DNA of 64,000 nucleotides, from NCBI RefSeq assembly GCF_058153355.1, contig NZ_CM177019.1; one strand, written 5' to 3'. Both the position numbers and the translations under genes were made by a program. Positions 27,984 through 64,000 of the stretch are shown one piece after another. Each line of letters opens with the position of its first letter. The stretch's first letter is position 1. Under the pieces are notes generated by a model. That model was not told the origin of the DNA and did no database searches. It was given only the letters and a program-made list of their open reading frames with translations.

Positions 27984-28022
27984 CAGTGTGTTGGTAGCTA
28001 AAAAGCCAGGGGCGGTAGCGTG
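27984..28022 (+). promoter_or_regulatory. JUMPstart element with ops motif (GGCGGTAGCGTG) in the wza leader
   Basis: CAGTGTGTTGGTAGCTAAAAAGCCAGGGGCGGTAGCGTG, ~180 bp upstream of wza; ops sites recruit RfaH for antitermination of long polysaccharide operons. Confidence 0.78.
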
Positions 28023-28200
28023 TCTGGATGCCTGAAAGACCAGTCTGAATTATTCTGTCAATAGCCTGCGGATGAAATCAATTTTTTTAGGACTGATGCC
28101 AGTTAAATTTTTATTCAATTAACTGCAAGGTAAATGTGCATGGCGACATTGCTATTAATAGTGCACAGGATAATTACTCTGCCAAAGTGATAAATAAACA

Positions 28201-29340
28201 ATGATGAAATCCAAAATGAAATTGATGCCATTATTGGTGTCAGTAACCTTGATAAGCGGTTGCACAGTACTTCCGGGCAGCAATATGTCGACGATGGGGA
28301 AAGACGTCATCAAACAGCAGGACGCTGATTTCGATCTCGACAAAATGGTGAATGTTTATCCGCTGACCCCGCGCCTGATTGACCAATTACGCCCACGTCC
28401 GAATGTAGCGCGCCCTAATATGACGCTGGAAAGTGAGATCGCGAATTACCAGTATCGCGTCGGGCCGGGGGACGTTCTTAATGTCACCGTCTGGGATCAC
28501 CCGGAACTCACCACGCCAGCCGGTCAGTACCGCAGCTCCAGCGACACCGGCAACTGGGTACAGCCTGACGGCACCATGTTCTACCCGTATATCGGCAAGG
28601 TCCACGTCGTGGGGAAAACGCTCGCTGAAATCCGCAGTGATATTACCGGGCGCTTAGCGACGTACATCGCTGACCCGCAGGTGGACGTTAATATCGCCGC
28701 CTTCCGCTCGCAAAAAGCCTATATCTCCGGCCAGGTGAATAAATCCGGTCAACAGGCGATTACCAACGTACCACTGACCATTCTCGATGCCATCAACGCC
28801 GCAGGTGGCCTGACCGACACCGCTGACTGGCGCAACGTGGTGCTAACACACAATGGTCGTGAAGAGCGCATTTCTTTGCAGGCGCTGATGCAAAACGGCG
28901 ACCTCAACCAGAATCGCCTGCTTTACCCCGGCGATATTCTCTACGTGCCACGTAATGATGATCTGAAAGTATTTGTGATGGGTGAAGTGAAGAAACAGAG
29001 CACCCTGAAAATGGACTTTAGCGGCATGACCCTGACTGAAGCTCTGGGCAATGCCGAAGGTATCGACATGACCACCTCCAACGCCAGCGGCATCTTTGTC
29101 ATTCGTCCGCTGAAAGGCGAGGGCGGGCGTAACGGCAAGATTGCCAATATCTACCAGCTGGATATGTCCGATGCCACGTCGCTGGTGATGGCGACAGAAT
29201 TCCGCCTGCAACCTTATGACGTGGTGTATGTCACCACCGCCCCGGTTTCCCGCTGGAACCGTCTGATCAATCAGTTGCTGCCAACTATTAGCGGTGTCCG
29301 TTACATGACGGATACAGCCAGCGACATTCATAACTGGTAA
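28201..29340 (+). CDS. wza: Outer-membrane polysaccharide export lipoprotein Wza
   Basis: 379-aa ORF; lipoprotein signal with lipobox LISGC; first gene of the colanic acid operon. Confidence 0.95.
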
Positions 29341-35793: not shown

Positions 35794-36540
35794 ATGTTGC
35801 TTAGCATAATCACTGTCGCGTTTCGTAACCTCGAAGGGATAGTCAAAACACATGCCTCGCTGGCGCATCTGGCGCAGGCGGACGATATCAGCTTCGAATG
35901 GATTGTTGTCGATGGCGGTTCCAACGACGGTACCCGTGAGTATCTGGAAAATCTCAATGGTATCTATAACCTACGCTTTGTCAGCGAGCCAGATAACGGT
36001 ATCTACGACGCCATGAACAAGGGCATTGCGATGGCACAAGGCAAGTTCGCGTTGTTTCTCAACTCGGGCGATATTTTTCATCAGGATGCCGCAAATTTTG
36101 TCCGTAAGTTAAAAATGCAAAAAGATAACATGATGATCACCGGCGATGCGCTGCTGGATTTTGGCGACGGGCATAAAATTAAGCGTAGTGCTAAACCGGG
36201 CTGGTATATTTATCACAGCCTGCCCGCCAGTCATCAGGCGATATTTTTCCCGGTATCCGGTTTGAAAAAATGGCGTTATGACCTGGAATATAAAGTTTCT
36301 TCTGATTACGCGCTGGCAGCTAAAATGTATAAAGCAGGTTATGCATTTAAAAAACTCAATGGCCTGGTGTCTGAATTTTCCATGGGTGGGGTATCAACCA
36401 CCAATAATATGGAATTGTGTGCTGACGCGAAAAAAGTCCAACGGCAGATATTACATGTGCCTGGCTTCTGGGCAGAATTATCCTGGCATTTACGCCAGCG
36501 TACTACCTCAAAGACGAAAGCCTTATATAACAAAAGCTGA
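35794..36540 (+). CDS. wcaE: Colanic acid glycosyltransferase WcaE (GT2)
   Basis: 248-aa ORF; GT2 N-terminus [10 protein letters not shown]...[10 protein letters not shown]. Confidence 0.88.
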
Positions 36541-42470: not shown

Positions 42471-42553
42471 GCGAAACCGCGGTGTAAATAACGACAAAAA
42501 TAAAATTGGCCGCTTCGGTCAGGGCCAACTATTGCCTGAAAAAGGGTAACGAC

Positions 42554-46949: not shown

Positions 46950-47255
46950 TCCGACAACGGTTGCCGGGTGCAGCGTAAAACGCCTTATCCGTCCTACGGT
47001 TCTGTGCTCGGGACCTGTAGGCCTGATAAGACGCGTCAGCGTCGCATCAGGCACTGAATGCCGGATGCGGCGTGAACGCCTTATCCGTCCTACGGTTCTG
47101 TGCTCGGGACCTGTAGGCCTGATAAGACGCGTCAGCGTCGCATCAGGCACTGAATGCCGGATGCGGCGTGAACGCCTTATCCGGCCTACGGTTCTGTGCT
47201 CGGGTCTTGTAGGCCTGATAAGACGCGCCAGCGTCGCATCAGGCAAAAAGCGGCA
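46950..47255. repeat. Tandem array of three ~97-bp REP/BIME units
   Basis: The block GCCGGATGCGGCGTGAACGCCTTATCCG(T/G)CCTACGGTTCTGTGCTCGGG...GTAGGCCTGATAAGACGCG(T/C)CAGCGTCGCATCAGGCA recurs three times. Confidence 0.85.
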
Positions 47256-49813: not shown

Positions 49814-51208
49814 ATGCCATTTAAAAAACTCTCCCGACGTACCTTCCTGACGGCAAGCTCCGCGCTTGCCTTCCTCCATACCCCTTTCGCCCGTGCACTT
49901 CCCGTCCGACAAAGCGTTAATATCAGTGACTACAATCCGCACGACTGGATCGCCTCATTTAAGCAGGCCTTCAGCGAAGGGCAAACGGTCGTCGTGCCTG
50001 CCGGATTTGTTTGTGACAACATTAATACCGGTATCTTCATCCCTGCCGGTAAAGCAATACGCATCCTCGGTAGCCTGCGCGGCAACGGCAAAGGGCGATT
50101 TGTCTTACAGGACGGCAGCCAGGTGACAGGGGAGAAGGGCGGCAGTATGCATAACATCACCCTGGATGTGCGTGGTTCTGACTGCACCATCAAAGGGCTG
50201 ACTATGAGCGGCTTTGGGCCGGTAACGCAGATTTACATCGGGGGAAAAAACAAACGGGTCATGCGTAACCTGACCATCGATAACCTCACTGTCAGCCACG
50301 CTAATTACGCCATTTTACGCCAGGGATTTCATAACCAGATTATCGGTGCCAACATCACCAATTGTAAGTTCAGTGACTTACAGGGCGACGCCATTGAATG
50401 GAATGTGGCGATTAACGACAGTGATATTTTGATATCTGACCATGTCATCGAGCGCATCAACTGTACCAACGGCAAAATCAACTGGGGCATCGGCATAGGT
50501 CTTGCGGGAAGCACTTATGATAATAATTACCCGGAAGACCAGGCAGTGAAAAACTTTGTCGTGGCGAATATCACGGGATCGGATTGTCGGCAGTTGATCC
50601 ATGTTGAAAATGGTAAACATTTTGTTATTCGTAATATCAAAGCCCGCAATATCACGCCGGATTTCAGTAAGAAAGCAGGTATTGATAACGCCACAGTCGC
50701 TATTTACGGTTGTGACAATTTCGTGATTGATAATATTGAAATGATTAATAGCGCCGGAATGTTAATCGGCTATGGGGTAATTAAAGGCAAATATCTCTCG
50801 ATACCGCAAAATTTCCGAGTGAATAATATTCAACTGGATAACACCCATCTTGCTTATAAATTGCGCGGCATCCAAATCTCCGCCGGGAATGCTCTCTCCT
50901 TTGTGGCACTGACTAACATTGAGATGAAGCGTGCGTCGCTGGAGTTACACAACAAACCGCAACATCTTTTTATGCGAAATATCAAGGTGATGCAGGAATC
51001 CTCAGTTGGACCCGCATTGAGCATGAACTTCGACATGCGCAAAGACGTTCGCGGCGTCTTTATGGCGAAAGAAGAAACACTGCTGTCTCTTGCAAATGTT
51101 CATGCGGTGAATGAAAGAGGGCAAAGCTCCGTCGATATCGACAGGATTAATCACCATATTGTTAATGTGGAAAAGATTAACTTTAGATTGCCGGAACGGT
51201 GGGAGTAG
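49814..51208 (+). CDS. wcaM: Colanic acid biosynthesis protein WcaM (Tat-type signal, beta-helix-like)
   Basis: 464-aa ORF with twin-arginine-like signal [15 protein letters not shown]; last gene of the colanic acid cluster. Confidence 0.88.
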
Positions 51209-51365
51209 ATTTGCGACCATTCATAAACTTACTGGATATAATGTTCTAAAAGATTATAATCCTCACACTAACTGTTAAAGCTGGGGCTGGGCAGCATTGA
51301 CTACTCAGGGAAGGTACTCATCTTTATCTTGTGTTTCTTACGTAACAACCAGACTAAAGTGATTT

Positions 51366-52361
51366 ATGAACGATAACGTTTTGCTCATAGGAGCTTCCGG
51401 ATTCGTAGGAACCCGACTACTTGAAACGGCAATTGCTGACTTTAATATCAAGAACCTGGACAAACAGCAGAGCCACTTTTATCCAGAAATCACACAGATT
51501 GGCGATGTTCGTGATCAACAGGCACTCGACCAGGCGTTAGCCGGTTTTGACACTGTTGTGCTACTGGCAGCGGAACACCGCGATGACGTCAGCCCTACTT
51601 CTCTCTATTATGATGTCAATGTTCAGGGTACCCGCAATGTGCTGGCGGCCATGGAAAAAAATGGCGTTAAAAATATCATCTTTACCAGTTCCGTTGCTGT
51701 TTATGGTTTGAACAAACACAACCCTGACGAAAACCATCCACACGACCCTTTCAACCACTACGGCAAAAGTAAGTGGCAGGCAGAGGAAGTGCTGCGTGAA
51801 TGGTATAACAAAGCACCAACAGAACGTTCATTAACCATCATCCGTCCTACCGTTATCTTCGGTGAACGCAACCGCGGTAACGTCTATAACTTGCTGAAAC
51901 AGATCGCTGGCGGCAAGTTTATGATGGTGGGCGCAGGGACTAACTATAAGTCCATGGCTTATGTTGGAAACATTGTTGAGTTTATCAAGTACAAACTGAA
52001 GAATGTTGCCGCAGGTTATGAGGTTTATAACTACGTTGATAAGCCAGACCTGAACATGAACCAGTTGGTTGCTGAAGTTGAACAAAGCCTGAACAAAAAG
52101 ATCCCTTCTATGCACTTGCCTTACCCACTAGGAATGCTGGGTGGATATTGCTTTGATATCCTGAGCAAAATTACGGGCAAAAAATACGCTGTCAGCTCAG
52201 TGCGCGTGAAAAAATTCTGCGCAACAACACAGTTTGACGCAACGAAAGTGCATTCTTCAGGTTTTGTGGCACCGTATACGCTGTCGCAAGGTCTGGATCG
52301 AACTCTGCAGTATGAATTCGTCCATGCCAAAAAAGACGACATAACGTTTGTTTCTGAGTAA
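51366..52361 (+). CDS. gne: NAD-dependent sugar nucleotide epimerase, probably UDP-GlcNAc 4-epimerase (Gne-like)
   Basis: 331-aa ORF; Rossmann motif LIGASGFVG; sits between wcaM and galF, where gne lies in several E. coli serogroups with GalNAc-containing O antigens. Family call is solid; substrate is inferred. Confidence 0.6.
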   Translation: MNDNVLLIGASGFVGTRLLETAIADFNIKNLDKQQSHFYPEITQIGDVRDQQALDQALAGFDTVVLLAAEHRDDVSPTSLYYDVNVQGTRNVLAAMEKNGVKNIIFTSSVAVYGLNKHNPDENHPHDPFNHYGKSKWQAEEVLREWYNKAPTERSLTIIRPTVIFGERNRGNVYNLLKQIAGGKFMMVGAGTNYKSMAYVGNIVEFIKYKLKNVAAGYEVYNYVDKPDLNMNQLVAEVEQSLNKKIPSMHLPYPLGMLGGYCFDILSKITGKKYAVSSVRVKKFCATTQFDATKVHSSGFVAPYTLSQGLDRTLQYEFVHAKKDDITFVSE

Positions 52362-52603
52362 TGCAGGCGAGTCAGAGAAAAAAGGACCAGGTTGGACTAC
52401 GATTATTCGGAAAGAGGTACTGATTAAATTATCAGTATGTGGATTTCCGAGTAATCCGAGTAACCCAGATGCTGATGGTGTGTAGTGTTATCGTAAGGTT
52501 TAATCAAAGTTATGCGGAACTAAGCTTTGCTATATAGCCATAACGCTTGGCTAACCTATGGCAATAATTTACGCACTATCAGCCACTTAGAGGTAGGAAA
52601 ATA

Positions 52604-53497
52604 ATGACGAATTTAAAAGCAGTTATACCGGTAGCAGGTCTTGGGATGCATATGTTGCCTGCCACTAAGGCGATTCCCAAAGAGATGCTACCGATCGTCG
52701 ACAAGCCAATGATTCAGTACATTGTTGACGAGATTGTGGCTGCAGGGATCAAAGAAATCCTCCTGGTAACTCACGCGTCCAAGAACGCGGTCGAAAACCA
52801 CTTCGACACCTCTTATGAATTAGAATCTCTCCTTGAGCAGCGCGTGAAGCGTCAACTGTTGGCGGAAGTACAATCTATCTGTCCGCCGGGCGTGACCATT
52901 ATGAACGTGCGTCAGGGTGAACCTTTAGGTTTAGGCCACTCCATCTTATGTGCGCGACCTGCCATTGGTGACAACCCATTTATCGTGGTACTGCCAGACG
53001 TAGTGATCGACGACGCCAGCGCCGACCCGCTGCGCTACAACCTTGCTGCCATGATTGCGCGCTTCAACGAAACGGGCCGTAGCCAGGTGCTGGCAAAACG
53101 TATGCCGGGTGACCTCTCTGAATACTCCGTCATCCAGACCAAAGAACCGCTGGACCGTGAAGGTAAAGTCAGCCGCATTGTTGAATTTATCGAAAAACCG
53201 GATCAGCCGCAGACGCTGGACTCAGACATCATGGCCGTAGGTCGCTATGTGCTTTCTGCCGATATTTGGCCGGAACTAGAACGCACTCAGCCTGGTGCAT
53301 GGGGGCGTATTCAGCTGACTGATGCTATTGCCGAACTGGCGAAAAAACAGTCCGTTGATGCCATGCTGATGACTGGAGACAGCTACGACTGCGGTAAAAA
53401 AATGGGCTATATGCAGGCGTTTGTGAAGTACGGACTGCGTAACCTGAAAGAAGGGGCGAAGTTCCGCAAAGGTATTGAGAGGTTGTTGAATGATTAA
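52604..53497 (+). CDS. galF: UTP-glucose-1-phosphate uridylyltransferase regulatory paralog GalF
   Basis: 297-aa ORF; nucleotidyltransferase N-terminus [26 protein letters not shown]; canonical 5' flank of the O-antigen locus. Confidence 0.92.
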
Positions 53498-53746
53498 AAA
53501 CATGAACAAATATAACGGTAAATAAGAGAAATTGTAACGGCAGTGAGGATTTGCGGCGAAGCTCAAACGTGGCGAATATCCCTGTCGTTATTTATTAATA
53601 AATCATCGTACTAACAATGGAATAAAAAAGTGCCTTGTTTTAAGTTTTACAGGATATTCCTTGTTTCTGGAGGAGATTGATAAGACAATCAGCATCTGAA
53701 TTTATCAGAACTTGTGTGTCTTGCTGATTACATTGTTATATTCATG

Positions 53747-53785
53747 TAGTGTACTGGTAGCTGTGGAGCCAGGGGCGGTAGCGTG
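53747..53785 (+). promoter_or_regulatory. JUMPstart element with ops motif (GGCGGTAGCGTG at 53774-53785) heading the O-antigen cluster
   Basis: TAGTGTACTGGTAGCTGTGGAGCCAGGGGCGGTAGCGTG, ~60 bp upstream of wzx; near-identical core to the copy upstream of wza. Confidence 0.78.
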
Positions 53786-53842
53786 CATTAATATTCACAA
53801 TATATTCTTTTAAATGTAAGCAGAATTAATCGAACCTAAATA

Positions 53843-55357
53843 ATGTCACGTAACAAAATAATCATAAAGAATACTATGTTTTTGGCAACAAGAACCTTAG
53901 TTTCTTTAAGTGTTTCATTTTACACAACAAGAATAGTTATACAACAGTTGGGGGCGGCAGACTATGGCTTATTTAATATCATTTATGGAGTTGTAACATT
54001 TTTTACATTCGTAGTCACCGCGATGAATGATTCTGTACAGCGTTATATTGCAATAGGTGTTGGTTCACAAAAAATATCGGTTATTAGAGATGCTGTAAAA
54101 AATAGTATGTTTATATTTGTTATATCTGCTTTCATATTGGCAGTATGTCTTCTTTTGGCAAGGGGGGTGATCATACATAATATTTTAAATATACCTAAAG
54201 ATTCTATTGAAAATGCAAGTGTGTTATATTTGGTTGCAGTATTTTCAATAACCATACTTATAATTCAGACGCCACTTAATGCGATGGTGTTAGCATACGA
54301 GAAAATGTCATTTTACGCATACATGATGATATTTGAAATGGTAGCTAAAATGAGTATGGCTTTGTTACTAACTTTACTGGAAAAAGATAAGGTCATTGTA
54401 TATTCAATACTTTTAGGTTCTATTTCTTTTTTTAACTTGTTGGTTTATTTATGCTACTGCTTGATATGTTTTAAAAAATCAATGTTTGGTGGGAGAATAA
54501 AATTTAGAGTGCTGAAAGAAATTTCAACTTTTTCATTTTGGAATATATTTGGTAATTTCTCTTACATGTGCAGAGTTCAGGGAGTGAACATTGTAATTAA
54601 TATGTTTTACGCTATAGCCGTGAATGCAGCATATGCGATTTCGATTACTGTTTTAAATGCAATTAATACACTTACGCAATCATTAATTACAGCATTAAGG
54701 CCTCAAATATTTAAATCATATGGCGAATGTGATTTAAAAAGATATAATCATCTAGTTCTCTTTGGTTCAAAATATACATTTTCAATATTGTTTCTGTTAA
54801 GTAGCCCTGTAATTCTATGTGCGGATGAGTTGTTAAAGATATGGCTTGATATTGTACCAGATTATACAGTTGAATTTGTGAGGTTGGTCATTGTTGTGGC
54901 TTTTATTGATAGTTTTTCATATAGCATGATTGCTGGTATTCAGGCTACGGGTAGGATTAAAACATATCAACTAGTTGTTAGTTTAATTGTCCTAATTAAT
55001 TTGCCGTTAACCTTTATTTTGTTTAAGGCAGGAAATAATGTTTTAAGTATGTTTTATCCATTTATTGTTACTGCCATTATCAATCAAGGTTTAAGGTTGT
55101 ATTTTATCTATATCAATGCAGGTTTTGATTATAAGAAGTATTTCACTGTTGTGATCTATCCTTGCTTGTTAGCTGTATGCTTATCGTTAGTGACAGATAT
55201 TTCAATTAAAAAAATGCTTCCATTTAACAGTGTTATTGATGTTTTAATTGTGTGTATTTTTATTTTTTCATTCAATACAATAATTTTTTATTGGGTTGTA
55301 GTTTCTAAAAAGGAAAAAAAATGGTTATTAGAAACCCTGAAAAGAAAAGTGAAATAA
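53843..55357 (+). CDS. wzx: O-antigen flippase Wzx (polysaccharide biosynthesis / MOP family)
   Basis: 504-aa AT-rich ORF, almost entirely hydrophobic with ~12 predicted TM helices; first gene after galF and JUMPstart. Confidence 0.7.
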   Translation: MSRNKIIIKNTMFLATRTLVSLSVSFYTTRIVIQQLGAADYGLFNIIYGVVTFFTFVVTAMNDSVQRYIAIGVGSQKISVIRDAVKNSMFIFVISAFILAVCLLLARGVIIHNILNIPKDSIENASVLYLVAVFSITILIIQTPLNAMVLAYEKMSFYAYMMIFEMVAKMSMALLLTLLEKDKVIVYSILLGSISFFNLLVYLCYCLICFKKSMFGGRIKFRVLKEISTFSFWNIFGNFSYMCRVQGVNIVINMFYAIAVNAAYAISITVLNAINTLTQSLITALRPQIFKSYGECDLKRYNHLVLFGSKYTFSILFLLSSPVILCADELLKIWLDIVPDYTVEFVRLVIVVAFIDSFSYSMIAGIQATGRIKTYQLVVSLIVLINLPLTFILFKAGNNVLSMFYPFIVTAIINQGLRLYFIYINAGFDYKKYFTVVIYPCLLAVCLSLVTDISIKKMLPFNSVIDVLIVCIFIFSFNTIIFYWVVVSKKEKKWLLETLKRKVK

Positions 55358-56703
55358 CAATAAAAGATGTTATAGACAATGAACTCTGTACTGGTTGTGG
55401 AGTTTGTATTTCGGAAGATAGTAGCAAAACCTCCTTTATGAAATGGAATTCTGAAGGTTTTTATGAGCCATGTTTCTCTCCTGTATCAACATTATTCAAT
55501 ATGCAGCGTGTTTGTCCCTTTAACTTAAGTAGGGATACATTAGTGAATGAGGATGAACTTGCGCATGAGTTTTTTGATGGTAAGGGATATTTAGATTCTG
55601 AGGTTGGGTTTTATAAAAAAATATATGTGGGTTATTCTAAACATTTTAGAGAGACTTCATCCTCCGGTGGTATAGCTACATATGTATTTGAACAACTTCT
55701 TAGACGTAAGTATGTTGATGCTCTATTTATAGTTAGGGAGCTTGGTGGTTCATATGGATATCAAGTCTTCGATAATCCAGAACATATTAAGGATATGTCT
55801 AAAACAAGATATTATCCTGTAACGCTAGAAAAGTTATTTGATAATATTTATAAGCTTAATGGTAGAGTGGCCGTTTCAGGAGTGGCATGTTTTATTAAAG
55901 CCATTAGGCTCAAACAACATTACCATCCAGAACTGAAAGAGAAAATACCATTCCTTGTTGGTATAATTTGTGGAGGACTCAAAAGTCGATATTACACTGA
56001 TTATTTATCACAGTCTGCTGGTTGTGTCAGTGAGTACCAAAATGCTGAGTATCGAGTGAAAAAGAAAGATAGTCATGCTCTTGACTATCGTTTCACATGT
56101 GTTGAGAAATCAAATAATATAATTCATTCTGTTGATATGCAAAGAATGGGGGATATGTGGGGTTCAGGGCTATTTAAGGCAAACGCATGTGACTATTGTG
56201 ATGATGTTACAACCGAACTCGCAGACATATCATTGGGTGATGCCTGGATTTCGCCATACAATATGGATGGAGCTGGTAATAATGTAGTTGTATGTCGCTC
56301 CACCACAGCTCATGAAATTATTTTATCTGGGATTGAGAAAAAAGACTTAGAATTAACGGAACTCGAATTAGAGCAGTTGAAATTGTCACAACAAGGAAGT
56401 TTTAACCACAGGCATAAAGGATTATTATATAGAATAAAAAATGCAGAGAAAAATAATCGCTTAGTGCCTGTTAAGAGGAAAAGATTCTTACGCTCTATAT
56501 CTTTTTTATTAAAGTTAATTCAAAAACAACGATCAGTTACAAGGAGAAAAAGCATAGAGATATGGATGGAAACTCAAAATTCAGCAACTTTCGATAAGAA
56601 AATGAAGGGATATTTATTCACGTTGCGTTGGTTAACAGTGGTCAATAGGAAATTAAGTCGGATGTTCAAGATTGTTTCTCTAAATAGAATGGGTAAAAAA
56701 TGA
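55321..56703 (+). CDS. Fe-S protein resembling coenzyme F420 hydrogenase/dehydrogenase beta subunit (FrhB-like); probable partner of the adjacent pyruvyl transferase
   Basis: 460-aa ORF with ferredoxin-like CTGCGVC motif near the N-terminus and further Cys residues (CDYCDD); overlaps the wzx end by 37 bp, so the true start may lie downstream. Confidence 0.5.
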   Translation: MVIRNPEKKSEITIKDVIDNELCTGCGVCISEDSSKTSFMKWNSEGFYEPCFSPVSTLFNMQRVCPFNLSRDTLVNEDELAHEFFDGKGYLDSEVGFYKKIYVGYSKHFRETSSSGGIATYVFEQLLRRKYVDALFIVRELGGSYGYQVFDNPEHIKDMSKTRYYPVTLEKLFDNIYKLNGRVAVSGVACFIKAIRLKQHYHPELKEKIPFLVGIICGGLKSRYYTDYLSQSAGCVSEYQNAEYRVKKKDSHALDYRFTCVEKSNNIIHSVDMQRMGDMWGSGLFKANACDYCDDVTTELADISLGDAWISPYNMDGAGNNVVVCRSTTAHEIILSGIEKKDLELTELELEQLKLSQQGSFNHRHKGLLYRIKNAEKNNRLVPVKRKRFLRSISFLLKLIQKQRSVTRRKSIEIWMETQNSATFDKKMKGYLFTLRWLTVVNRKLSRMFKIVSLNRMGKK

Positions 56704-57836
56704 AAGTTGCAATATTAACTCAACCATTACATACGAATTATGGTGGCACATTACAAGCCTATGCATTACAAAAAGTCTTGATTAATTTGGGACATGAACC
56801 AGAGACTATTAATTATAGGTCGAAAATTAAGAGGCCACTATTTATCCGTGTTGTGTTGTCAAAAATTAAAAGGATAGTATTATGCCGAAAAATCACATTT
56901 GATTTTACAACACAAGATAGAATTAATATTAGGAAGCATCATCAATCTTTCATTGATACAAGATTAAACTATTCAGAGGAGATTAACGGTACTGAGGGGT
57001 TGAGAGATTATATTTTAAAAAATAATTACGGTGCTGTAATAATAGGTAGTGATCAGACATGGAGACCAATATATTCGCCTAGAATAGATTCATTTTTTCT
57101 CGATTTTTTAAGTGATGTAAACGATATAAAAAAAATGGCATATGCAGCATCTTTTGGTACTGATAAATGGGAGTTCACGGAGTCACAAACTAATTTATTT
57201 AAATTGTTACTTTCAAAATTTGACTATGTTTCAGTTAGAGAGTCCTCAGGAGTCAAATTATGTAGTGAAAAATTTGGTTTGAAAGCAGAGTTGGTTTTAG
57301 ATCCGACATTGCTATTGACATTCGAAGATTATACTCATTTATTAGACAATGACTATATTAATCTTCATAAGGGAAAGGTGTTTAGTTATGTACTTGATGA
57401 GAATTACGACAAAAAAAACTTTATAGACACAGTAGCAAGTACTCTCCGCACAACGTCATTTTATACTTACCCTAAAAAAATCACTAAAGATGAATATGTG
57501 ATTAGAAATTATTCCGAGTATGAATATCCGCCAATAGAATATTGGATTTCTTCGTTTAAGGCCGCTGAATTTATTGTAACAGATTCATTTCATGGAACAG
57601 TATTTTCTATTATTTTTAACAAACCCTTCATCGCCATTGCAAATGAAGAGAGAGGAAAGGCTAGATTTACGTCACTATTGGAAATGTTTGGTCTTGAAAG
57701 ACGACTTGTGAGTAATTTAGATGATGTTGATTTAAAGCTTGTAAATGAAAAAATTAACTATGGCCCCATAAATGAAAAAATTGCTTATTTTAGAGAAGAG
57801 TGCCTTAAAAAGTTGCAGTTAATGCTAATAAAATAA
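56700..57836 (+). CDS. Polysaccharide pyruvyl transferase (WcaK/CsaB family)
   Basis: 378-aa ORF; N-terminus MKVAILTQPLHTNYGGTLQAYAL parallels the WcaK N-terminus MKLLILGNHTCGNRGDSAIL in this same window; 4-bp overlap with the upstream gene. Confidence 0.55.
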   Translation: MKVAILTQPLHTNYGGTLQAYALQKVLINLGHEPETINYRSKIKRPLFIRVVLSKIKRIVLCRKITFDFTTQDRINIRKHHQSFIDTRLNYSEEINGTEGLRDYILKNNYGAVIIGSDQTWRPIYSPRIDSFFLDFLSDVNDIKKMAYAASFGTDKWEFTESQTNLFKLLLSKFDYVSVRESSGVKLCSEKFGLKAELVLDPTLLLTFEDYTHLLDNDYINLHKGKVFSYVLDENYDKKNFIDTVASTLRTTSFYTYPKKITKDEYVIRNYSEYEYPPIEYWISSFKAAEFIVTDSFHGTVFSIIFNKPFIAIANEERGKARFTSLLEMFGLERRLVSNLDDVDLKLVNEKINYGPINEKIAYFREECLKKLQLMLIK

Positions 57837-57882
57837 TCAGATTATGTATGTCTCTCTACAATTAAAATATGAATGTTGATCG

Positions 57883-58887
57883 ATGAAGAATTGTAAAGTA
57901 TCTGTAATTATTCCGGTCTATAATGCGGAAAAATATATACAACGTTGTATTTTAAGCTTATTAAAGCAGACATTAGATGATGTTGAAATTATCATCATTG
58001 ATGATGGTTCTACTGATAATTCACTTTCTATAATAAAAGAAACTGTTGCATTGCATACTGCTAGTAGAGCTCGCCAAAAGAGAATCAATATAATCTCTCG
58101 AGAAAACAAAGGAGTTGCCTATACACGAAGTCAGGGATTGAGACTTTCGCAGGGGGAATTTATCATTCATTTTGATAGTGATGATTGGGCAAAATCCAAT
58201 ATGCTGGAGGAAATGTATAAGACAATTGTTTCCAATAATGCAGACATGGTTATATGCGATTATTTTTTAGTGAAGAATAATAAAGAAATACTTATAAAAC
58301 AGAGAGTGGAGTATGAGCCAAAGAAATGTATTAGATATCTACTGACTGGTGAGCTAGAAGGATTTACATGGAACAAACTAATTAGAAAAAAATATATCGA
58401 TAAAAATAAAATTGATTTTGTTAATAAAATTACTTATATGGAGGATTTTTTGTTCATATTAAGTGTGTTACTACACAATCCTAAAATTATTTTTCAGGAT
58501 TGTGCATATTATTATTATCAAAAAAGCAATCCTAAATCTCTAACTAGCCATGCTAGTGTGGATAGGCTTTCTGAAATGATTAAAGCCGTAAGTGAAATAG
58601 AAAAGAAGATAAATAAATATAATTTACAAAAGTATCTGAATAACGAGTTTCAATTGTTTAAGTTAAAACAAAAAATTTGGTTTATATCTATAAGTAAGTT
58701 AAATGTTAATGATAATGTATGGAATCTCTTTCCTGAAACAAATCCATTTATATCAAAGGTAAATGTGCTTTTTTATTATAAAATAGTGCTTTTTCTTGAT
58801 AGTATTAAACTGCGTTTTTTTTCAAATAAGATCATTTATCTCATTGGATTGGTGCAGGCTTTATTACAAGAAAGGAAAGAGAAGTGA
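57883..58887 (+). CDS. Glycosyltransferase family 2
   Basis: 334-aa ORF; VSVIIPVYNAEKYI, IIIIDDGSTDNS, later DSDD (DXD). Confidence 0.72.
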   Translation: MKNCKVSVIIPVYNAEKYIQRCILSLLKQTLDDVEIIIIDDGSTDNSLSIIKETVALHTASRARQKRINIISRENKGVAYTRSQGLRLSQGEFIIHFDSDDWAKSNMLEEMYKTIVSNNADMVICDYFLVKNNKEILIKQRVEYEPKKCIRYLLTGELEGFTWNKLIRKKYIDKNKIDFVNKITYMEDFLFILSVLLHNPKIIFQDCAYYYYQKSNPKSLTSHASVDRLSEMIKAVSEIEKKINKYNLQKYLNNEFQLFKLKQKIWFISISKLNVNDNVWNLFPETNPFISKVNVLFYYKIVLFLDSIKLRFFSNKIIYLIGLVQALLQERKEK

Positions 58888-59672
58888 TACCAAAAATAAT
58901 TCATTACTGCTGGTTCGGTCGCTCTCCATTGTCGGAATTAACAAAGCAGTGCATTGCAAGCTGGGAGAAATATTGTCCTGAATATAAAATCATAAGATGG
59001 GATGAAAATAATGTCGATTTGAATTCTTGTTCTTTTGTTAGACAAGCTTATAAAGAAAAAAAATGGGCGTTCGTTTCTGATTATGTAAGGCTTAAAGTGG
59101 TTAATGAATATGGCGGTATCTATCTTGATACAGATGTTGAATTAATAAAGCCATTAGATGATTTGTTAATATATCCTGCATATATAGGCTTTGAAATTAA
59201 CAAGGAATGGTATGTAAATTCTGGTTTGGGGTTCGGTTCTGTTAATAATAATCCGGTTTTAGAATCATTAATTATGGAGTATGAAAATATTAATTTTGTA
59301 AATGAGGATGGGACTCTAAATATAACGCCGTGCCCCATAAGAGAAACAAAAGCATTAACAAAAATAGGTTTAATTCCTGATGGTCAATGTCAATCTTTTG
59401 ATAATATAGTGATTTTTTCTGCAGATTATTTTTGTCCTGTATCTATAACAGGTGAGAGAAATTTTTCTGATAAAACATATTCAATACATCATTACGATGC
59501 TAGTTGGTTTTCTGAGCAAAAGAGAAAAGGCCTGCAACGTAAAAAGAGATTTATAAAACTATTCGGCAACCTAATAGGCACATATATTAATAAACCTTTT
59601 ATTTTTGTAGATGAATGTCGCGAGTTCGGATTAGTTAAAGCAATCAAGAATATGCGTTCCAATTTTCCTTAA
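58884..59672 (+). CDS. Glycosyltransferase with DXD sugar-binding region (Gly_transf_sug / Och1-like family)
   Basis: 262-aa ORF; N-terminus IPKIIHYCWFGRSPL, then YLDTDVELIKPLDD; characteristic of this small retaining glycosyltransferase family. Confidence 0.65.
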   Translation: MIPKIIHYCWFGRSPLSELTKQCIASWEKYCPEYKIIRWDENNVDLNSCSFVRQAYKEKKWAFVSDYVRLKVVNEYGGIYLDTDVELIKPLDDLLIYPAYIGFEINKEWYVNSGLGFGSVNNNPVLESLIMEYENINFVNEDGTLNITPCPIRETKALTKIGLIPDGQCQSFDNIVIFSADYFCPVSITGERNFSDKTYSIHHYDASWFSEQKRKGLQRKKRFIKLFGNLIGTYINKPFIFVDECREFGLVKAIKNMRSNFP

Positions 59673-59745
59673 TTTTTAGTGTTAAGGAATAAGTTTCGTT
59701 AAAATACTTTATTCATTTAATTAATAAAGGTTTAATGGTGATTAG

Positions 59746-60849
59746 ATGTACTTTCTTTTGTTCTTCTCAATATTTTATTTTGTATACGTAATCTTAATAG
59801 GAACATTATGTCATAACTATAAAGCCCTTTTGATTTTTTCACTAATCCCTCTGACAATAGTGTCAGGTATAAGATATAATGTCGGCTTTGATTTTATGTC
59901 ATATGTTGATTACTTCAATCAACTCAAATATTCAAATGATATATATCTAGATTCTACCTTTAAGTATATAAGCTACTTTACCTATTATATAGGAGGTAAC
60001 GAACAGATTTTGTTTCTGATATATGCGGTTTTTTATTCGGTTGCACTTTATTTTTTAATAAAACTGGTATTGGAAAATTATATAACGGAAATAAATAATT
60101 TTTATACTATTGGACTTGTGTTATCATTTTATTCGTTTTATTTTTTATTATCATTTAATCAAATTAGGGCTGTATTATCAGCTCTAATACTATGTTATGG
60201 GCTATTAAAAAATAAAATAGATTTTTCTTTTATAATAACAATTACATTAAGTATTCTTTTTCACTCTGCAGCAATGTTCATTTTACCTCTTTATTTTGTC
60301 CTAAGAAAAATAAATGTAACAGTTCTGTTGGTGATATTCCCTTTTTTGGTTGTTGCTTCATTCTTTAATATTTTTTCAGATATTGTGAGATTCATTCTGA
60401 CATTGCTAAATAGTCGTTTTTTAACATATTTTAACTCTGAATATTTTGTTCCAAGGACGGGAATGGAAAAAATGTATAGTATGATCTCAATGATTATTGT
60501 TTTGGGAATGGTTGTTTGTTTGTCTAAATTATTACCTAAAAAGTTTGATTTAATGATAAAGTTTGTTATTCTTTTTGTTCTACTTAGAGCGATGTCAATT
60601 GATATATTGATTTTTGCTAGGTTTAGTGATTTTCTTAAACCAATGGCTATAATTCTTATATTTACCGCTGTTTATTTTTCTTCGAATAAAGTGCGACCTA
60701 GAATTATCCTTCCTTTTTATTTAATTATGACATTGTTTCTCTGTATTTTTAATATAATAATCGGATCGAATATAACTAAGGGGAACTATTATACTTATGG
60801 TTATAACATTTGCTTTTTTGGCAATAAATGTATAGATAAATTTTATTAG
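59746..60849 (+). CDS. wzy: Candidate O-antigen polymerase Wzy (EpsG-like polytopic membrane protein)
   Basis: 367-aa, extremely AT-rich, ~10 predicted TM segments with no soluble domain; placement among the glycosyltransferases is typical of wzy. Assignment is by architecture only. Confidence 0.5.
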   Translation: MYFLLFFSIFYFVYVILIGTLCHNYKALLIFSLIPLTIVSGIRYNVGFDFMSYVDYFNQLKYSNDIYLDSTFKYISYFTYYIGGNEQILFLIYAVFYSVALYFLIKLVLENYITEINNFYTIGLVLSFYSFYFLLSFNQIRAVLSALILCYGLLKNKIDFSFIITITLSILFHSAAMFILPLYFVLRKINVTVLLVIFPFLVVASFFNIFSDIVRFILTLLNSRFLTYFNSEYFVPRTGMEKMYSMISMIIVLGMVVCLSKLLPKKFDLMIKFVILFVLLRAMSIDILIFARFSDFLKPMAIILIFTAVYFSSNKVRPRIILPFYLIMTLFLCIFNIIIGSNITKGNYYTYGYNICFFGNKCIDKFY

Positions 60850-60859
60850 TAATTGTCAT

Positions 60860-61927
60860 TTGATACTTCTGGTATTTATGGAAAAATATATGAATAACTT
60901 TTCTTGTAAAGAACCCCCTTCATTTATTGAAAATAAAATTATATTATCAATTATTCTTCCTGTATATAACGTATCAGAGTATTTAATTGAGTGCCTAAAC
61001 AGTTTGCTGTTAGACGTTCATGAACGTTATCTTAATAGATGTGAAGTAATTGTGGTTGATGATGGTTCAACTGATAATTCATTTGAATTAATGAGAGAGT
61101 ATTCTTTGAAATATCCTGAATCTATTAAGATTTATTCGAAATTCAATGGTGGTCTCTCAGATGCAAGAAACTATGGATTATTAAAATCTTCAGGTAAATA
61201 TATTTCTTTTGTTGATTCAGATGATGTTGTTAATAGAGGTTTTATAAAGGAAATCATCAATTTCATTGATGCCTATGATTTTGATATATTGTCATTTGAC
61301 TTCATGAAGTTTTTTAATAATAATGATGCTCTTATTCTTTCACAAATAGATGAATTCTCCAAAATGGCAGAAAGAGTAGATTCGGAGTTCTACAAGTCCA
61401 AGCCTGTTTTTGCTTGGAATAAAGTTTATCGACGTTCTCTTTTCGACAATGAAGTATTTCCTAAGGGGTGGTATTATGAAGATGTTGCATTAATTCCGTT
61501 ATTATTAGATAGAGCAAAAGTTTTATACCATATTAATAGCGTTTGTTATTTTTATAGACAGAGACAAGGAGCAATCACTTTTTTTTATGACAATAAATAT
61601 CTTGATATTTTAAAAGGAGTGTCTTTTTTATATGACAGGTCACAATCTTCATTCATTAAAACGATAATTATAAATCAGTTTTTTACTTTAACCTTACTAT
61701 CTTTAAGATTGCCGACTGATAATTATTTCATGAATATGAGGGGGATTATTGATACCTATTGTGAAAAATTTGACTTGGATTCCTTTGAGCCTAAACTAAT
61801 ATTAAAACACATTCCTTTTTTATTGCTTAAAAAATTGAAGTCGCTGTGTGTTTATCCACTGTATTTATTTAAACCTGCAGTTTTTTTACATAAACAAATT
61901 AAACATTTTAGAGGAAAACTAAAGTGA
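60860..61927 (+). CDS. Glycosyltransferase family 2 (start codon uncertain)
   Basis: 355-aa ORF; ILSIILPVYNVSEYL, VIVVDDGSTDNS, FVDSDD. The true start may be the internal ATG at MNNFSC. Confidence 0.7.
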   Translation: MILLVFMEKYMNNFSCKEPPSFIENKIILSIILPVYNVSEYLIECLNSLLLDVHERYLNRCEVIVVDDGSTDNSFELMREYSLKYPESIKIYSKFNGGLSDARNYGLLKSSGKYISFVDSDDVVNRGFIKEIINFIDAYDFDILSFDFMKFFNNNDALILSQIDEFSKMAERVDSEFYKSKPVFAWNKVYRRSLFDNEVFPKGWYYEDVALIPLLLDRAKVLYHINSVCYFYRQRQGAITFFYDNKYLDILKGVSFLYDRSQSSFIKTIIINQFFTLTLLSLRLPTDNYFMNMRGIIDTYCEKFDLDSFEPKLILKHIPFLLLKKLKSLCVYPLYLFKPAVFLHKQIKHFRGKLK

Positions 61928-63033
61928 AATATGATTATATAATTATAGGTAGCGGTCTTTTTGGGAGTGTGTTTGCACATGAATTAGGGAAAATGAAAAA
62001 AAAGGTCAAGGTTATTGAGCGTCGTGATCATGTTGGTGGTAATGTATATTGTGAGAATATTGAAGGAATTAATGTTCATAAATATGGCGCACATATATTC
62101 CATACTAACGATAAAGAAATATGGGATTATGTAAATCAATTTGTAGAGTTTAATAGATATACAAATTCACCATTAGCTTTTTCAAAAGGTAAAATTTATA
62201 ATTTACCTTTTAACATGAATACCTTTAATCAACTCTGGGGGGCTATTACTCCTCAACATGCGAAAGAAATTATTAAAAAGCAAAGCGGTGAAATAAGTGG
62301 AAATAAACCAAGGAATCTTGAAGAGCAAGCTATTTCTTTGGTGGGACGAGATATTTATAATTGTTTGATTAAGGAGTACACTGAGAAACAATGGGGACGA
62401 CCTTGCACTGAATTGCCATCATTTATTATAAAACGACTCCCTGTTAGGTTTACATACGATAATAACTATTTTAATGACCAGTATCAAGGAATACCAGTCG
62501 GTGGTTACAATAAATTAATCGATGCATTATTAAATGGTATTGAAGTTCAAACATGCACTGACTATTTTGAAGAGAAGAAATATTGGGATTCTATTGCAAA
62601 GAAAATTATTTATACAGGGCCTATTGATAAGTTTTATTGCTATAAATTTGGAGCTTTGGATTATCGATCATTAAAATTTGAGCATGAATTACTGAATGTC
62701 GATAATTTTCAAGGGAATGCTGTTGTAAATTATATAGACAAAAAATTCCCATTCACTCGTATAATAGAACATAAATTTTTTGAATTTGGTGAACAGCATA
62801 ATACTCTCATTACTCGAGAGTACCCAAAAGAATTCGAAGAAGGCGATGAGTATTACTATCCTGTCAATGATGAAAAAAATATGCAAATCTATAAAATGTA
62901 TTATAATCTTTCTAAACAGGAAAGTAATGTGATTTTTGGTGGACGTCTTGCGGAATATAAATATTATGACATGCATCAAGTTATCAAATCAGCTTTAAAT
63001 GCATTCCGAAAAGAGGTACGTTTAGGTGAATAA
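61924..63033 (+). CDS. glf: UDP-galactopyranose mutase
   Basis: 369-aa ORF; FAD-binding YDYIIIGSGLFGSVFA, then KYGAHIFHTNDK...GGRLAEYKYYDMHQVI; very similar to the E. coli K-12 Glf sequence as I remember it. Confidence 0.85.
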   Translation: MKYDYIIIGSGLFGSVFAHELGKMKKKVKVIERRDHVGGNVYCENIEGINVHKYGAHIFHTNDKEIWDYVNQFVEFNRYTNSPLAFSKGKIYNLPFNMNTFNQLWGAITPQHAKEIIKKQSGEISGNKPRNLEEQAISLVGRDIYNCLIKEYTEKQWGRPCTELPSFIIKRLPVRFTYDNNYFNDQYQGIPVGGYNKLIDALLNGIEVQTCTDYFEEKKYWDSIAKKIIYTGPIDKFYCYKFGALDYRSLKFEHELLNVDNFQGNAVVNYIDKKFPFTRIIEHKFFEFGEQHNTLITREYPKEFEEGDEYYYPVNDEKNMQIYKMYYNLSKQESNVIFGGRLAEYKYYDMHQVIKSALNAFRKEVRLGE

Positions 63034-63940
63034 AGAAGTAATCGCAGTTATTGTAACCTATAATAGAAAAGCATTATTGCTGAAAGTTATAGATGCTGTT
63101 ATTAACCAAAGTTATCCACTAAAAAAAATATTGATAATAGATAATAATAGTACTGATGGTACGGAGATGTTTATTTCAAATAGGCTCTCTGACGTGGTGA
63201 AGTATAAAAATACGGGGGATAATTTAGGGGGGGCTGGCGGGTTTTATAGAGGATTCATAGAGGCGGAAAAATATGGCTATGATTATCTTTGGTTAATGGA
63301 CGATGATTTTATGCCTACAGTGAATTGTCTTGAAATATTAATATCAAATAGCCCTGATGGTATTGTCCAACCTGTTAGATATAACTTGGATGAAACTTGT
63401 GCAGAGCTTTCTCCATTAACTTATGATTTATCTAACCCATTTAAGTTAAACCCTAAAGGTACACCATTAAAAAATTACTTAAATACAATTGGTAATAAAT
63501 CTGCGAAGGTAGATATTGAAGCTATTCCATTTGAAGGTCCATTGATTTCACGAAAGGTTGTTGAAAAAATAGGCTATCCAGAGCCTAAGTTTTTTATTTT
63601 TTGTGATGACATTGAATACGCTATTAAAGCTAAAAGAAAGGGGATTCCCATCCAGTGCAATCTTAAAGCCAAGGCATACCGCCTTTTGGTCAACAATCAA
63701 GGTAATGATCTTCTTTCCTGGAAAGGATATTTTATGCTTCGAAATCTTTTCTACCTGCATAAAACGTATGGGACCAATTTCCTTGTTAGACAAAAACCTA
63801 TCGTATTGGGATTAGGATATGCATTGTCGTGTGTATTGAAATGCAATTTTTCTCAACTTCCCGTTATATGGCGTGCTTTTTGGGATTCATCTACGTTAAG
63901 AAATACCGAAAAATTCAGGCCCGAAATGAGAAGTAAATAA
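63026..63940 (+). CDS. Glycosyltransferase family 2, plausibly a galactofuranosyltransferase
   Basis: 304-aa ORF; VIAVIVTYNRKALL, IIDNNSTDGT, LMDDDF; sits directly after glf. Acceptor and donor specificity are inferred from context only. Confidence 0.62.
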   Translation: MNKEVIAVIVTYNRKALLLKVIDAVINQSYPLKKILIIDNNSTDGTEMFISNRLSDVVKYKNTGDNLGGAGGFYRGFIEAEKYGYDYLWLMDDDFMPTVNCLEILISNSPDGIVQPVRYNLDETCAELSPLTYDLSNPFKLNPKGTPLKNYLNTIGNKSAKVDIEAIPFEGPLISRKVVEKIGYPEPKFFIFCDDIEYAIKAKRKGIPIQCNLKAKAYRLLVNNQGNDLLSWKGYFMLRNLFYLHKTYGTNFLVRQKPIVLGLGYALSCVLKCNFSQLPVIWRAFWDSSTLRNTEKFRPEMRSK

Positions 63941-64000
63941 TTTATTATTATGTTTTTATTAATTAATGTCGATTTTTACTAAAATTCTTAACACGATATT

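Follow-up and report, generated by a model that had tools for sequence, protein, structure and literature searches.

Results

Gene content and serogroup of the locus

The window, by which we mean the whole stretch of 64,000 nucleotides that was analysed, contains downstream of galF an AT-rich block (53843-63940) of nine genes. The block is about 10.2 kb long, has a GC content of about 30% and begins immediately 3' of a JUMPstart element. All nine genes lie on the + strand, in the order wzx, FrhB-like reductase, pyruvyl transferase, GT2, GT32, wzy, GT2, glf, GT2. The genes and their left flank are:

51223..52586, + strand: gnu island (Pfam, annotation, cross-strain comparison)
52604..53497, + strand: galF, conserved left flank of the O-antigen locus, GC 0.513 (ORF, Pfam NTP_transferase, RefSeq annotation of a near-identical genome)
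53498..53842, + strand: galF-wzx intergenic region, 345 bp, GC 0.35, with putative promoter, leader and JUMPstart (alignment, BLAST, composition)
53843..55357, + strand: wzx, O124/O164-family O-unit flippase, GC 0.296 (Pfam MatE, RefSeq annotation)
55321..56703, + strand: FrhB/FdhB-like putative reductase of the F420 hydrogenase beta-subunit family (PF04432, PF04422)
56700..57836, + strand: polysaccharide pyruvyl transferase family, 378 aa, intact (PF04230)
57883..58887, + strand: glycosyltransferase family 2 (Pfam, annotation)
58884..59672, + strand: glycosyltransferase family 32, DXD (Pfam, annotation)
59746..60849, + strand: wzy, O124/O164-family polymerase, GC 0.257, the lowest of the block (Pfam EpsG, annotation)
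60890..61927, + strand: glycosyltransferase family 2 (Pfam, annotation; RefSeq start, the mechanical ORF runs from 60860)
61924..63033, + strand: glf, UDP-galactopyranose mutase, GC 0.311, GC3 0.225 (annotation, composition)
63026..63940, + strand: glycosyltransferase family 2, last gene of the cluster (RefSeq annotation)

The components that define a Wzx/Wzy-dependent O-antigen cluster are all present, namely a MatE-type wzx, an EpsG-type wzy, three GT2 genes and one GT32 gene. In strain VL7S7, which differs from the window at 5 sites in 16.6 kb, gnd starts at the window-equivalent position 64022, 22 bp past the window end, and the block therefore lies between galF and gnd. The succession of galF, a 39-bp JUMPstart, the O-antigen cluster and gnd is the published layout (PMC4732683).

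Five genomes that are annotated with O124/O164 wzx and wzy match the block with at least 99.8% identity over 10.6 kb. Among 5426 complete E. coli genomes the block is carried by five, and in each of the others at most 16% of it is covered. The sequence-only reading had called this DNA serotype-specific and had proposed to compare the galF-gnd interval among strains. The comparison bears this out: the same slot is occupied in the loci of K-12, 00_3230, O157, O55, O6, O145 and JMF1 by clusters whose first genes come from various families, rfbB being the first gene in two of the loci, and none of these genes is homologous to the wzx of the window. Gene order and content of the block are those of the E. 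coli O124/O164 (= Shigella dysenteriae type 3) cluster. The O124 serogroup is associated with enteroinvasive E. coli, and its O antigen is identical to that of S. dysenteriae type 3.

The published O-unit of O124 contains Galf, GalNAc as the first sugar and a Glc-GlcLA side branch (PMC7685785), and the gene set in the window fits this structure. Judging from it, the FrhB/FdhB-like reductase probably serves the lactyl group of glucolactilic acid, and the pyruvyl transferase gene is probably the wfeP of the same publication. O164 differs from O124 by a frameshift in wfeP, a gene of glucolactilic acid synthesis (PMC7685785, a review). We found nothing of substance that sets the window apart from the O124/O164 cluster. 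The pyruvyl transferase gene is split into two CDS in TUM18780, the O164 form, and its intact reading frame in the window indicates the O124 form. The window can thus be typed as carrying an O124-form cluster, which is useful for its annotation.

Part of the serotype-linked DNA is found outside the JUMPstart-gnd interval, in the gnu island upstream of galF. The island is missing from K-12. The gnu gene (51366-52361; formerly gne, Z3206) lies between wcaM and galF, as it does in O157, O55 and further serogroups with GalNAc as initiating sugar, and we found no difference to them. The Gnu protein (WP_000999466.1) is the same in O157:H7 and O55:H7, and the wcaM-gnu-galF segment shares about 96-97% DNA identity with both strains. 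Gnu, the GlcNAc-PP-undecaprenol 4-epimerase, produces GalNAc as the initiating sugar (PMC7685785). Despite its location upstream of galF, gnu belongs functionally with the O-antigen cluster.

Base composition at the end of galF

53468..53498, no strand: G+C step from 0.525 to 0.305 (change point and largest adjacent-window step)

A Bernoulli maximum-likelihood fit to the 64-kb window places the change point in G+C at 53468, 30 bp before the galF stop, with 0.525 to the left, 0.305 to the right and a log-likelihood gain of 878 nats. The biggest difference between adjacent 500-bp windows within the 64 kb is located at 53491 (0.536 to 0.338). Over positions 1-50000 such windows have a mean GC of 0.530 (sd 0.042), over 53498-64000 a mean of 0.304 (sd 0.029). 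A sharp boundary near 53500 had been proposed from the letters alone, with a GC profile lacking a step there named as the outcome that would refute it; the sliding profile shows the same drop, and it is the largest in the window. The accompanying description of the upstream genes as GC-balanced is correct only in part. The stretch 50245-53467 forms an intermediate shoulder with a mean of 0.46 that includes gnu (0.454), the 3' two-thirds of wcaM (0.44) and intergenic spacers of 0.37-0.41. The right edge is seen in the near-identical genome VL7S7, with a change point at locus position 16605, the window-equivalent of 64004, and a gnd of GC 0.505.

A step of this kind would also result if an assembly chimera had joined unrelated DNA, a reading that nothing favours except the abruptness of the change. 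The junction recurs, with 99.4-100% identity, in complete genomes that were sequenced independently and come from different sources, and the conserved JUMPstart spans galF-side and cluster-side sequence. Given five concordant genomes we reject an assembly artefact, to which we attach a practically negligible probability.

Codon and amino acid composition of the block

The nine block genes have GC3 values of 0.225-0.286, compared with 0.495-0.713 in the six genes just upstream; overall, GC3 is about 0.25 in the block and about 0.60 on the host side. A greedy ATG-ORF set, which includes eight of the nine block genes, some with shortened starts, gave 0.225-0.304 for the block versus 0.418-0.713 for 34 genes before 49810. 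The proposed check of codon adaptation was run as a codon index trained on these 34 upstream genes of the window itself, instead of a classical CAI with Sharp-Li E. coli weights, and the upstream genes (0.666 +/- 0.05, minimum 0.569) and the block genes (0.47 +/- 0.03, maximum 0.536) occupy disjoint ranges. The fraction of F, I, N, K and Y residues is 0.30-0.45 in the block and 0.20-0.31 upstream. Runs of A/T of at least 8 bases number 194 in the block versus 11-40 in upstream stretches of equal length, and the longest run has 22 bases compared with 9-13 upstream. The AT-biased codons, the enrichment in Ile, Lys, Asn and Phe and the long A/T runs that the sequence-only reading had remarked upon are thus all found. 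Promoter-like sites are about 30 times as frequent in the block (63, compared with 2 in a part of the colanic acid operon of the same length), as expected from composition alone.

One may ask whether the AT-richness is simply a by-product of the encoded proteins, since Ile, Phe, Leu, Asn and Lys abound in the membrane proteins Wzx and Wzy. Indeed, their genes rank among the most AT-rich of the block (wzy: GC 0.257, F+I+N+K+Y 0.45; wzx: GC 0.296, F+I+N+K+Y 0.37). However, it is the synonymous position that deviates most, and it does so in nine of nine genes. Soluble enzymes, too, are low in GC3 (glf 0.225, the reductase 0.27, the pyruvyl transferase 0.254), while wzxC, the colanic acid flippase in the same window, has a GC3 of 0.713. 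The non-coding spacers inside the block, with a GC of 0.21-0.22, likewise argue against this reading. The GC3 values lead us to reject amino acid composition as the explanation, and we regard it as highly improbable.

The JUMPstart leader and the homology boundary

53661..53689, + strand: putative sigma-70 promoter, -35 TTGTTT (53661-53666), 17-nt spacer, -10 GACAAT (53684-53689) (invariant columns)
53747..53785, + strand: JUMPstart, 39 bp, hairpin CUGGU...GCCAG (Rfam RF01707, 54.7 bits)
53774..53785, + strand: ops, the RfaH loading signal, GGCGGTAGCGTG (exact match)
53786..53797, no strand: end of similarity between serogroups, a homology/recombination boundary (BLAST and alignment)
27984..28022, + strand: second JUMPstart/ops, upstream of wza in the colanic acid operon (Rfam and ops match)

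A JUMPstart with ops had been read at 53747-53785, and the Rfam RF01707 match has exactly these coordinates. The match scores well above the gathering score of 35 bits, covers model positions 1-38, which is the full length, and contains zero non-canonical pairs. The 3' end of the element carries the defining ops sequence GGCGGTAGnnTG, and GGCGGTAG is a stretch within ops. The ops dodecamer occurs twice in the window, where 0.28 occurrences are expected by chance. The element lies on the sense strand of all nine genes, in the non-coding leader, 58 nt before the wzx ATG. Across serogroups, the JUMPstart shares 82-90% identity with its counterparts in seven other E. coli strains that were aligned, and ops is unchanged in all eight sequences, the window included. 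Thus, the element agrees with the Rfam family in its full-length match, its exact ops, its preserved hairpin and its leader position on the operon strand; it differs at position 1, a T where the consensus has C, and this T is shared by O145 and JMF1. The 3' part of the element is nearly identical to that of the copy upstream of wza.

Upstream of the JUMPstart, CTTGTTTC and T.AGA.AAT are invariant columns when the window is aligned with the seven other strains. We take the TTGTTT/GACAAT pair within the leader region as a conserved, weak promoter-like pair, from which a transcription start near 53696 would follow. A consensus scan of 53300-54000 returned zero promoters on the + strand and zero terminators; it missed this pair because the -35 matches the consensus at only three of six positions. 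The only structured element in the leader is the JUMPstart hairpin: the predicted folding stability of 53698-53860 is not above that of shuffled sequence (z = +1.39), and an Rfam E-value scan of 53600-53900 returned nothing besides the JUMPstart. Upstream of wzx we could not recognise a Shine-Dalgarno sequence.

BLAST matches to other serogroups extend from galF across the JUMPstart and stop at 53785-53797. galF itself is matched by most E. coli genomes with about 93-97% identity. The intergenic region is homologous among serogroups to about 53793, yet it is only about 72% identical to that of most E. coli. After 53797, identity to other serogroups drops to 25-52%. At least 69% of the complete genomes that were searched have a diverged version of this scaffold, which consists of galF, AT-rich intergenic DNA and the 39-bp JUMPstart. 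The earlier proposal that the JUMPstart marks the boundary is hence right for the boundary of homology, at about 53786-53797, but not for the GC step, which lies about 280-300 bp upstream at the end of galF. This offset of about 280 bp arises because AT-richness (GC 0.35) already characterises the promoter and leader region that the serogroups share. For annotation, the cassette boundary should be placed at about 53786-53797 rather than at the GC step.

We have very little doubt that the step represents the left border of an O124-type O-antigen gene cluster in an E. coli, located behind the galF/JUMPstart scaffold.

Origin and age of the block

In its composition the block is foreign to E. coli, which points to an origin in low-GC bacteria. 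Two classical marks of an island are present, the deviation in composition and codon usage and the patchy strain distribution (5 of 5426 genomes), and they support the horizontal acquisition that the sequence-only reading had proposed. One way to account for such DNA is a recent delivery from a low-GC donor by an integrase or IS element, with which the sharp compositional edges on both sides and the rarity of the block would agree. However, ORFs, Pfam and the annotation of the near-identical genome reveal zero integrase, transposase, tRNA or IS between 53498 and 64000, and all ORFs of at least 80 aa in this interval are biosynthetic, none of them a mobility gene. Furthermore, the block fills the same galF-gnd slot that is used by the non-homologous clusters of other serogroups, and its edges coincide with the conserved JUMPstart and gnd. 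A donor scan with the pyruvyl transferase in 100,044 species-representative genomes yielded 78 pattern matches and no true relative, which also speaks against delivery from a low-GC donor. Lacking mobility genes and sitting in the standard slot, the block is not a mobile island in our judgement, and this explanation appears very unlikely to us. Since mobility genes are absent, strains most likely swap the block through homologous recombination within its conserved flanks.

A scan with Glf peptide patterns, whose many K, N, I, Y and F residues bias the search toward AT-rich genomes, gave 554 relatives; beyond four Enterobacterales these are only 62-68% identical (Flavobacteriia, Firmicutes) and their composition is native there. 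In Flavobacterium, Tenacibaculum and Enterococcus glf has a GC of 0.30-0.32, equal to that of the host genome. In the four Enterobacterales hosts, each of another genus, its GC is 0.31-0.37, with far flanks of about 0.5 where measurable. Neither the pyruvyl transferase nor the Glf scan found a donor lineage.

59717..63946, + strand: 3' module wzy-GT2-glf-GT2, common to Escherichia albertii NBRC 107761 (87.9% DNA identity)

The import need not be recent. The 3' half of the block may be as old as the split of E. coli and E. albertii, as its genes are 84-92% identical to those of E. albertii, in the range of the adjacent gnd (91.5%) and ugd (87.1%). It could therefore be argued that O-antigen alleles, or at least wzy-GT2-glf-GT2, were present in the common ancestor and persist as a balanced polymorphism, and that the AT-richness is actively maintained, for example because a low expression gated by H-NS and RfaH is advantageous, instead of being a fading trace of transfer. 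Such long residence would also fit with both copies of the module, in E. coli O124 and in E. albertii, still having about 30% GC, with the low GC of glf across four enterobacterial genera and with the absence of mobility genes in the block. However, the evidence is one cross-species comparison, and the E. albertii locus lacks a counterpart of the 5' half, from wzx to GT32. It is known that gnd recombines along with O-antigen loci, so that equal divergence could equally reflect co-transfer of a single segment. Moreover, long residence addresses the age of the block and not its ultimately foreign composition. We consider it a possible, although rather unlikely, alternative to a recent import. 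The fetched part of the E. albertii locus contains no JUMPstart, even with 3 mismatches allowed, and the cluster runs past the fetched flank.

Taken one step further, the 30% GC might be a stable property of a very old, modular, trans-species polymorphism and not the decaying footprint of an import, a proposal that we put forward as speculative and probably not correct. A module as diverged as gnd and ugd that has not drifted to host GC in either species would imply selection for AT-rich cassettes. If so, cassettes would be kept AT-rich, for instance to stay under the H-NS and RfaH-ops gate, and whole modules would recombine at short intergenic junctions such as 59673-59745. The AT-richness persists in a module that may date back about as far as the divergence of E. 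coli from E. albertii.

Discussion

Clusters of low GC between galF and gnd, the 39-bp JUMPstart and control by ops and RfaH are textbook knowledge, and the O124/O164 cluster has already been sequenced and interpreted. The block illustrates clearly why an operon of high AT content needs an antiterminator that is loaded at ops. By analogy to other strains, transcription of the O124 operon would start about 50 nt upstream of the JUMPstart, and RNA polymerase would expose ops on the non-template strand, pause and load RfaH. RfaH would then exclude NusG and suppress Rho-dependent termination and the pausing imposed by H-NS and StpA along the AT-rich operon. It may also help to bring ribosomes to genes with poor Shine-Dalgarno sequences, of which wzx would be an example here. 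In E. coli CFT073, RfaH acts as a counter-silencer of H-NS-StpA on operons led by ops, an O-antigen operon included (PMC9765446). The operon in the window resembles this system in being AT-rich (30% GC), strain-specific, devoted to the cell envelope and equipped with ops in its 5' leader, and it shows the roughly 30-fold excess of promoter-like sites over the native colanic acid operon nearby. Occupancy by H-NS and RfaH is known for CFT073, whereas for the O124 operon we infer it from this likeness. The JUMPstart could hence be seen as a portable licence, such that any AT-rich cassette placed behind it would obtain full expression.

The G+C step and the codon bias of the O-antigen block

In a sliding profile of 500-bp windows, the distal colanic acid genes lie at about 0.53-0.56 G+C and 53000-53499 is still at 0.526; the values then fall to 0.34 at 53500-53999 and remain at 0.24-0.37 up to the window end. 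A Bernoulli change-point search across all 64 kb found the single best break at 53468, where G+C changes from 0.525 on the left to 0.305 on the right with a log-likelihood gain of 878 nats, and nowhere in the window do neighbouring 500-bp windows differ more than at 53491. With the last base of the galF stop codon at 53497, the step falls at the end of galF. The mean G+C of 500-bp windows is 0.530 (sd 0.042) in 1-50000 and 0.304 (sd 0.029) in 53498-64000. The step near 53500 proposed by the sequence-only reading is thus present in the profile, in the change point and in the top adjacent-window difference.

The bias extends to the coding sequences. GC3 is 0.225-0.286 in the nine block genes, and the six genes immediately preceding them have 0.495-0.713; in a greedy ATG-ORF set, which includes all block genes but one, some of them with truncated starts, the ranges are 0.225-0.304 for the block and, for 34 genes before 49810, 0.418-0.713. 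When a codon index was trained on those 34 genes, they scored 0.666 +/- 0.05 and the block genes 0.47 +/- 0.03, with disjoint ranges. The fraction of F+I+N+K+Y residues rises from 0.20-0.31 upstream to 0.30-0.45, and we counted 194 A/T runs of 8 or more bases in the block versus 11-40 in upstream stretches of equal length. The AT-biased codons, the Ile/Lys/Asn/Phe-rich proteins and the long A/T runs noticed by eye are all borne out by these values. AT-richness as a by-product of protein composition was rejected, because the synonymous position deviates most; the soluble enzymes of the block are AT-rich to the same degree as its membrane proteins.

JUMPstart marks the cassette edge

The right edge comes from the near-identical E. 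coli genome VL7S7, in which low G+C ends at window-equivalent 64004 and gnd (G+C 0.505) starts at 64022. The block is thus bounded on both sides, a cassette of about 10.5 kb between galF and gnd. The window itself stops 22 bp short of gnd. All nine block genes, assigned from ORFs and domain families, are co-directional and follow the JUMPstart.

Features of the O-antigen region and of the colanic acid leader
27984-28022 (+), second JUMPstart/ops (53.8 bits), in front of wza, colanic acid operon
51366-52361, gnu, on the island 51223-52586, encoding GlcNAc-PP-undecaprenol 4-epimerase
53747-53785, JUMPstart, Rfam RF01707, 54.7 bits (gathering score 35), full model, hairpin intact
53774-53785, ops dodecamer GGCGGTAGCGTG
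53843-55357, wzx
55321-56703, FrhB/FdhB-like putative reductase
56700-57836, polysaccharide pyruvyl transferase
57883-58887, GT2
58884-59672, GT32
59746-60849, wzy (EpsG family)
60890-61927, GT2
61924-63033, glf
63026-63940, GT2

The element at 53747-53785 shows every testable feature of a JUMPstart, and its coordinates had been read exactly. We aligned the DNA from galF to the first gene between the window and seven E. coli strains (K-12/O16, 00_3230, O157, O55, O6, O145 and JMF1).

Identity to the window in the seven-strain alignment
galF 3' end, 62-82%
5' part of the galF-wzx spacer, 30-70%
53656-53695, 55-80%
JUMPstart, 82-90%
after 53797, 25-52% (background)

Across 3748 genomes, BLAST matches stop at 53785-53797. 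Some 300 bp thus separate the G+C step (53468) from the homology break (about 53786-53797), and this interval is shared, AT-rich regulatory DNA (G+C 0.35). Hence the earlier proposal that JUMPstart marks the composition boundary holds for the edge of homology, which is that of the cassette, and fails for the G+C step, which lies about 300 bp upstream.

The second JUMPstart/ops sits inside an AT-rich stretch (27531-28251), and the 3' 31 bases of the two copies are nearly identical; the window therefore carries two ops-led operons. Between 47400 and 64000 the window and VL7S7 differ at five positions only, and two of these, 53744 (A/G) and 53747 (T/C), lie at the JUMPstart 5' edge, 3 bp from each other. 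At JUMPstart position 1 the window has T, as do O145 and JMF1, where the consensus is C.

An O124-form cluster with an upstream gnu

The stretch 53400-64000 is 99.8-100% identical to 5 of 5426 complete E. coli genomes, and none of the others covers more than 16% of it. RefSeq names wzx and wzy of these five genomes "O124/O164 family". The O124 unit is Galp-Galf-GalNAc with a GlcLA-Glc side branch, and the O164 variant has been ascribed to a wfeP frameshift (PMC7685785). The pyruvyl transferase family gene is intact here and split in TUM18780, and we therefore assign the window to the O124 form; the block has all testable features of a Wzx/Wzy O-antigen cluster of this form. The pyruvyl transferase is translationally coupled to the FrhB/FdhB-like (F420 hydrogenase beta-subunit family) protein (55321-57836). 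By analogy with MurA/MurB, the pair could plausibly make the lactyl ether of glucolactilic acid through enolpyruvyl transfer and reduction.

Upstream of the block, segmentation gave three G+C tiers: 0.53 (1-50244), 0.46 (50245-53467) and 0.305 beyond. The description of the upstream DNA as GC-balanced is thus right for the first tier and wrong for the second. The first step, at about 50245, falls within wcaM (49814-51208; first 430 bp 0.549, remainder 0.439) and is not particular to this strain, because K-12 wcaM has an identical internal pattern. Between wcaM and galF, a 1364-bp island (51223-52586) takes the place of 142 bp of K-12, which lacks it; 1308 of 5426 E. coli genomes have the island. 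Its Gnu protein is identical to the O157:H7 and O55:H7 copies. A gnu upstream of galF is a mark of GalNAc-starting O antigens, O124 among them (PMC7685785), and hence gnu belongs to the serotype-linked genes outside the JUMPstart-gnd interval.

Leader and proposed expression

Within the spacer alignment CTTGTTTC (53660-53667) and T.AGA.AAT (53681-53689) are invariant. A -35 TTGTTT and a -10 GACAAT separated by 17 nt plausibly form a weak sigma-70 promoter with a start near 53696, which a consensus promoter scan did not call. Leader folding gave no structure above chance except the JUMPstart hairpin, and the sequence upstream of the wzx ATG holds no Shine-Dalgarno-like motif.

The anatomy is that of the window; the mechanism is drawn from established work on other strains. 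Transcription would start at the weak putative promoter in the conserved spacer, and polymerase paused at ops would load RfaH. RfaH would then keep NusG out, suppress Rho-dependent termination and H-NS/StpA-imposed pausing over AT-rich DNA, and help to translate genes with poor ribosome-binding sites. Promoter-like matches number 63 in the block and 2 in a colanic acid operon stretch of the same length, exactly the composition-based expectation, and this is consistent with the RfaH/H-NS picture. The finding is correct and already known, every part matching published descriptions: the galF/JUMPstart/O-AGC/gnd layout (PMC4732683), the O124/O164 cluster with gnu (PMC7685785) and counter-silencing by RfaH/ops (PMC9765446). 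The overall interpretation of the sequence-only reading is supported, with refinements to the boundary, the upstream G+C and the age.

Origin and age of the block

"Horizontally acquired" is a reasonable reading of the composition. A mobile island was considered and rejected: no mobility genes occur among the annotated genes and domains of the block, in which no hallmark of such islands (mobility genes, att site) was seen, and the slot is the one used by every serogroup.

The block is a mosaic of two modules. The 3' module (59717-63946; wzy, GT2, glf, GT2) is 87.9% DNA-identical to positions 7794-12023 of the O-antigen locus of Escherichia albertii NBRC 107761, the 5' half of that cluster is unrelated, and the junction lies within the 74-bp GT32-wzy spacer. 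Per-gene identity of the module (84-92%) is on par with the adjacent gnd (91.5%) and ugd (87.1%), and from these sequences the module could date back to about the split of E. coli and E. albertii. It is still about 30% G+C in both species, and therefore recency of acquisition is not established; the AT-richness of this shared module seems to have been kept for a long time.

A scan of 100,044 species-representative genomes gave no close relative of the pyruvyl transferase. For Glf, amino-acid identity is 91% in E. albertii, 77% in Mixta, 72% in Winslowiella and 71% in Buttiauxella, followed at 61-68% by mostly Flavobacteriia, other Bacteroidota, Firmicutes and a few other groups. In Enterobacterales glf is compositionally alien (G+C 0.31-0.37 versus about 0.5 in the far flanks, compared at two loci only, Mixta and Winslowiella, where the flanks lie outside the cluster), while the 0.30-0.32 of Flavobacterium, Tenacibaculum and Enterococcus glf is native. 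This fits, weakly, a low-GC origin, the relatives being of low identity and the search peptides favouring AT-rich genomes.

Other observations

wcaE and dgcE are intact in the window (35794-36540 and 18683-22000, compared with the VL7S7 locus), whereas in VL7S7 wcaE is interrupted by IS1A and dgcE is frameshifted; the strain behind the window is thus not VL7S7 but one with the same O-antigen cluster and fewer IS elements. An algC RNA motif (RF02929, 76.6 bits) lies at 42500-42549 (+), directly upstream of cpsG (phosphomannomutase) in the colanic acid operon, and two naRNA4 matches (RF02564; REP-type) lie at 47020-47090 and 47116-47186 (-) in the wzxC-wcaK spacer. Three tandem SIB antitoxin RNAs (RF00113, 136-140 bits; 11191-11333, 11519-11661 and 11847-11989, -) imply as many type I toxin-antitoxin modules (ibs/sib) in the mdtA-yegL interval, a site at which K-12 has two. 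In place of this arrangement VL7S7 has an IS421 insertion near ibs.
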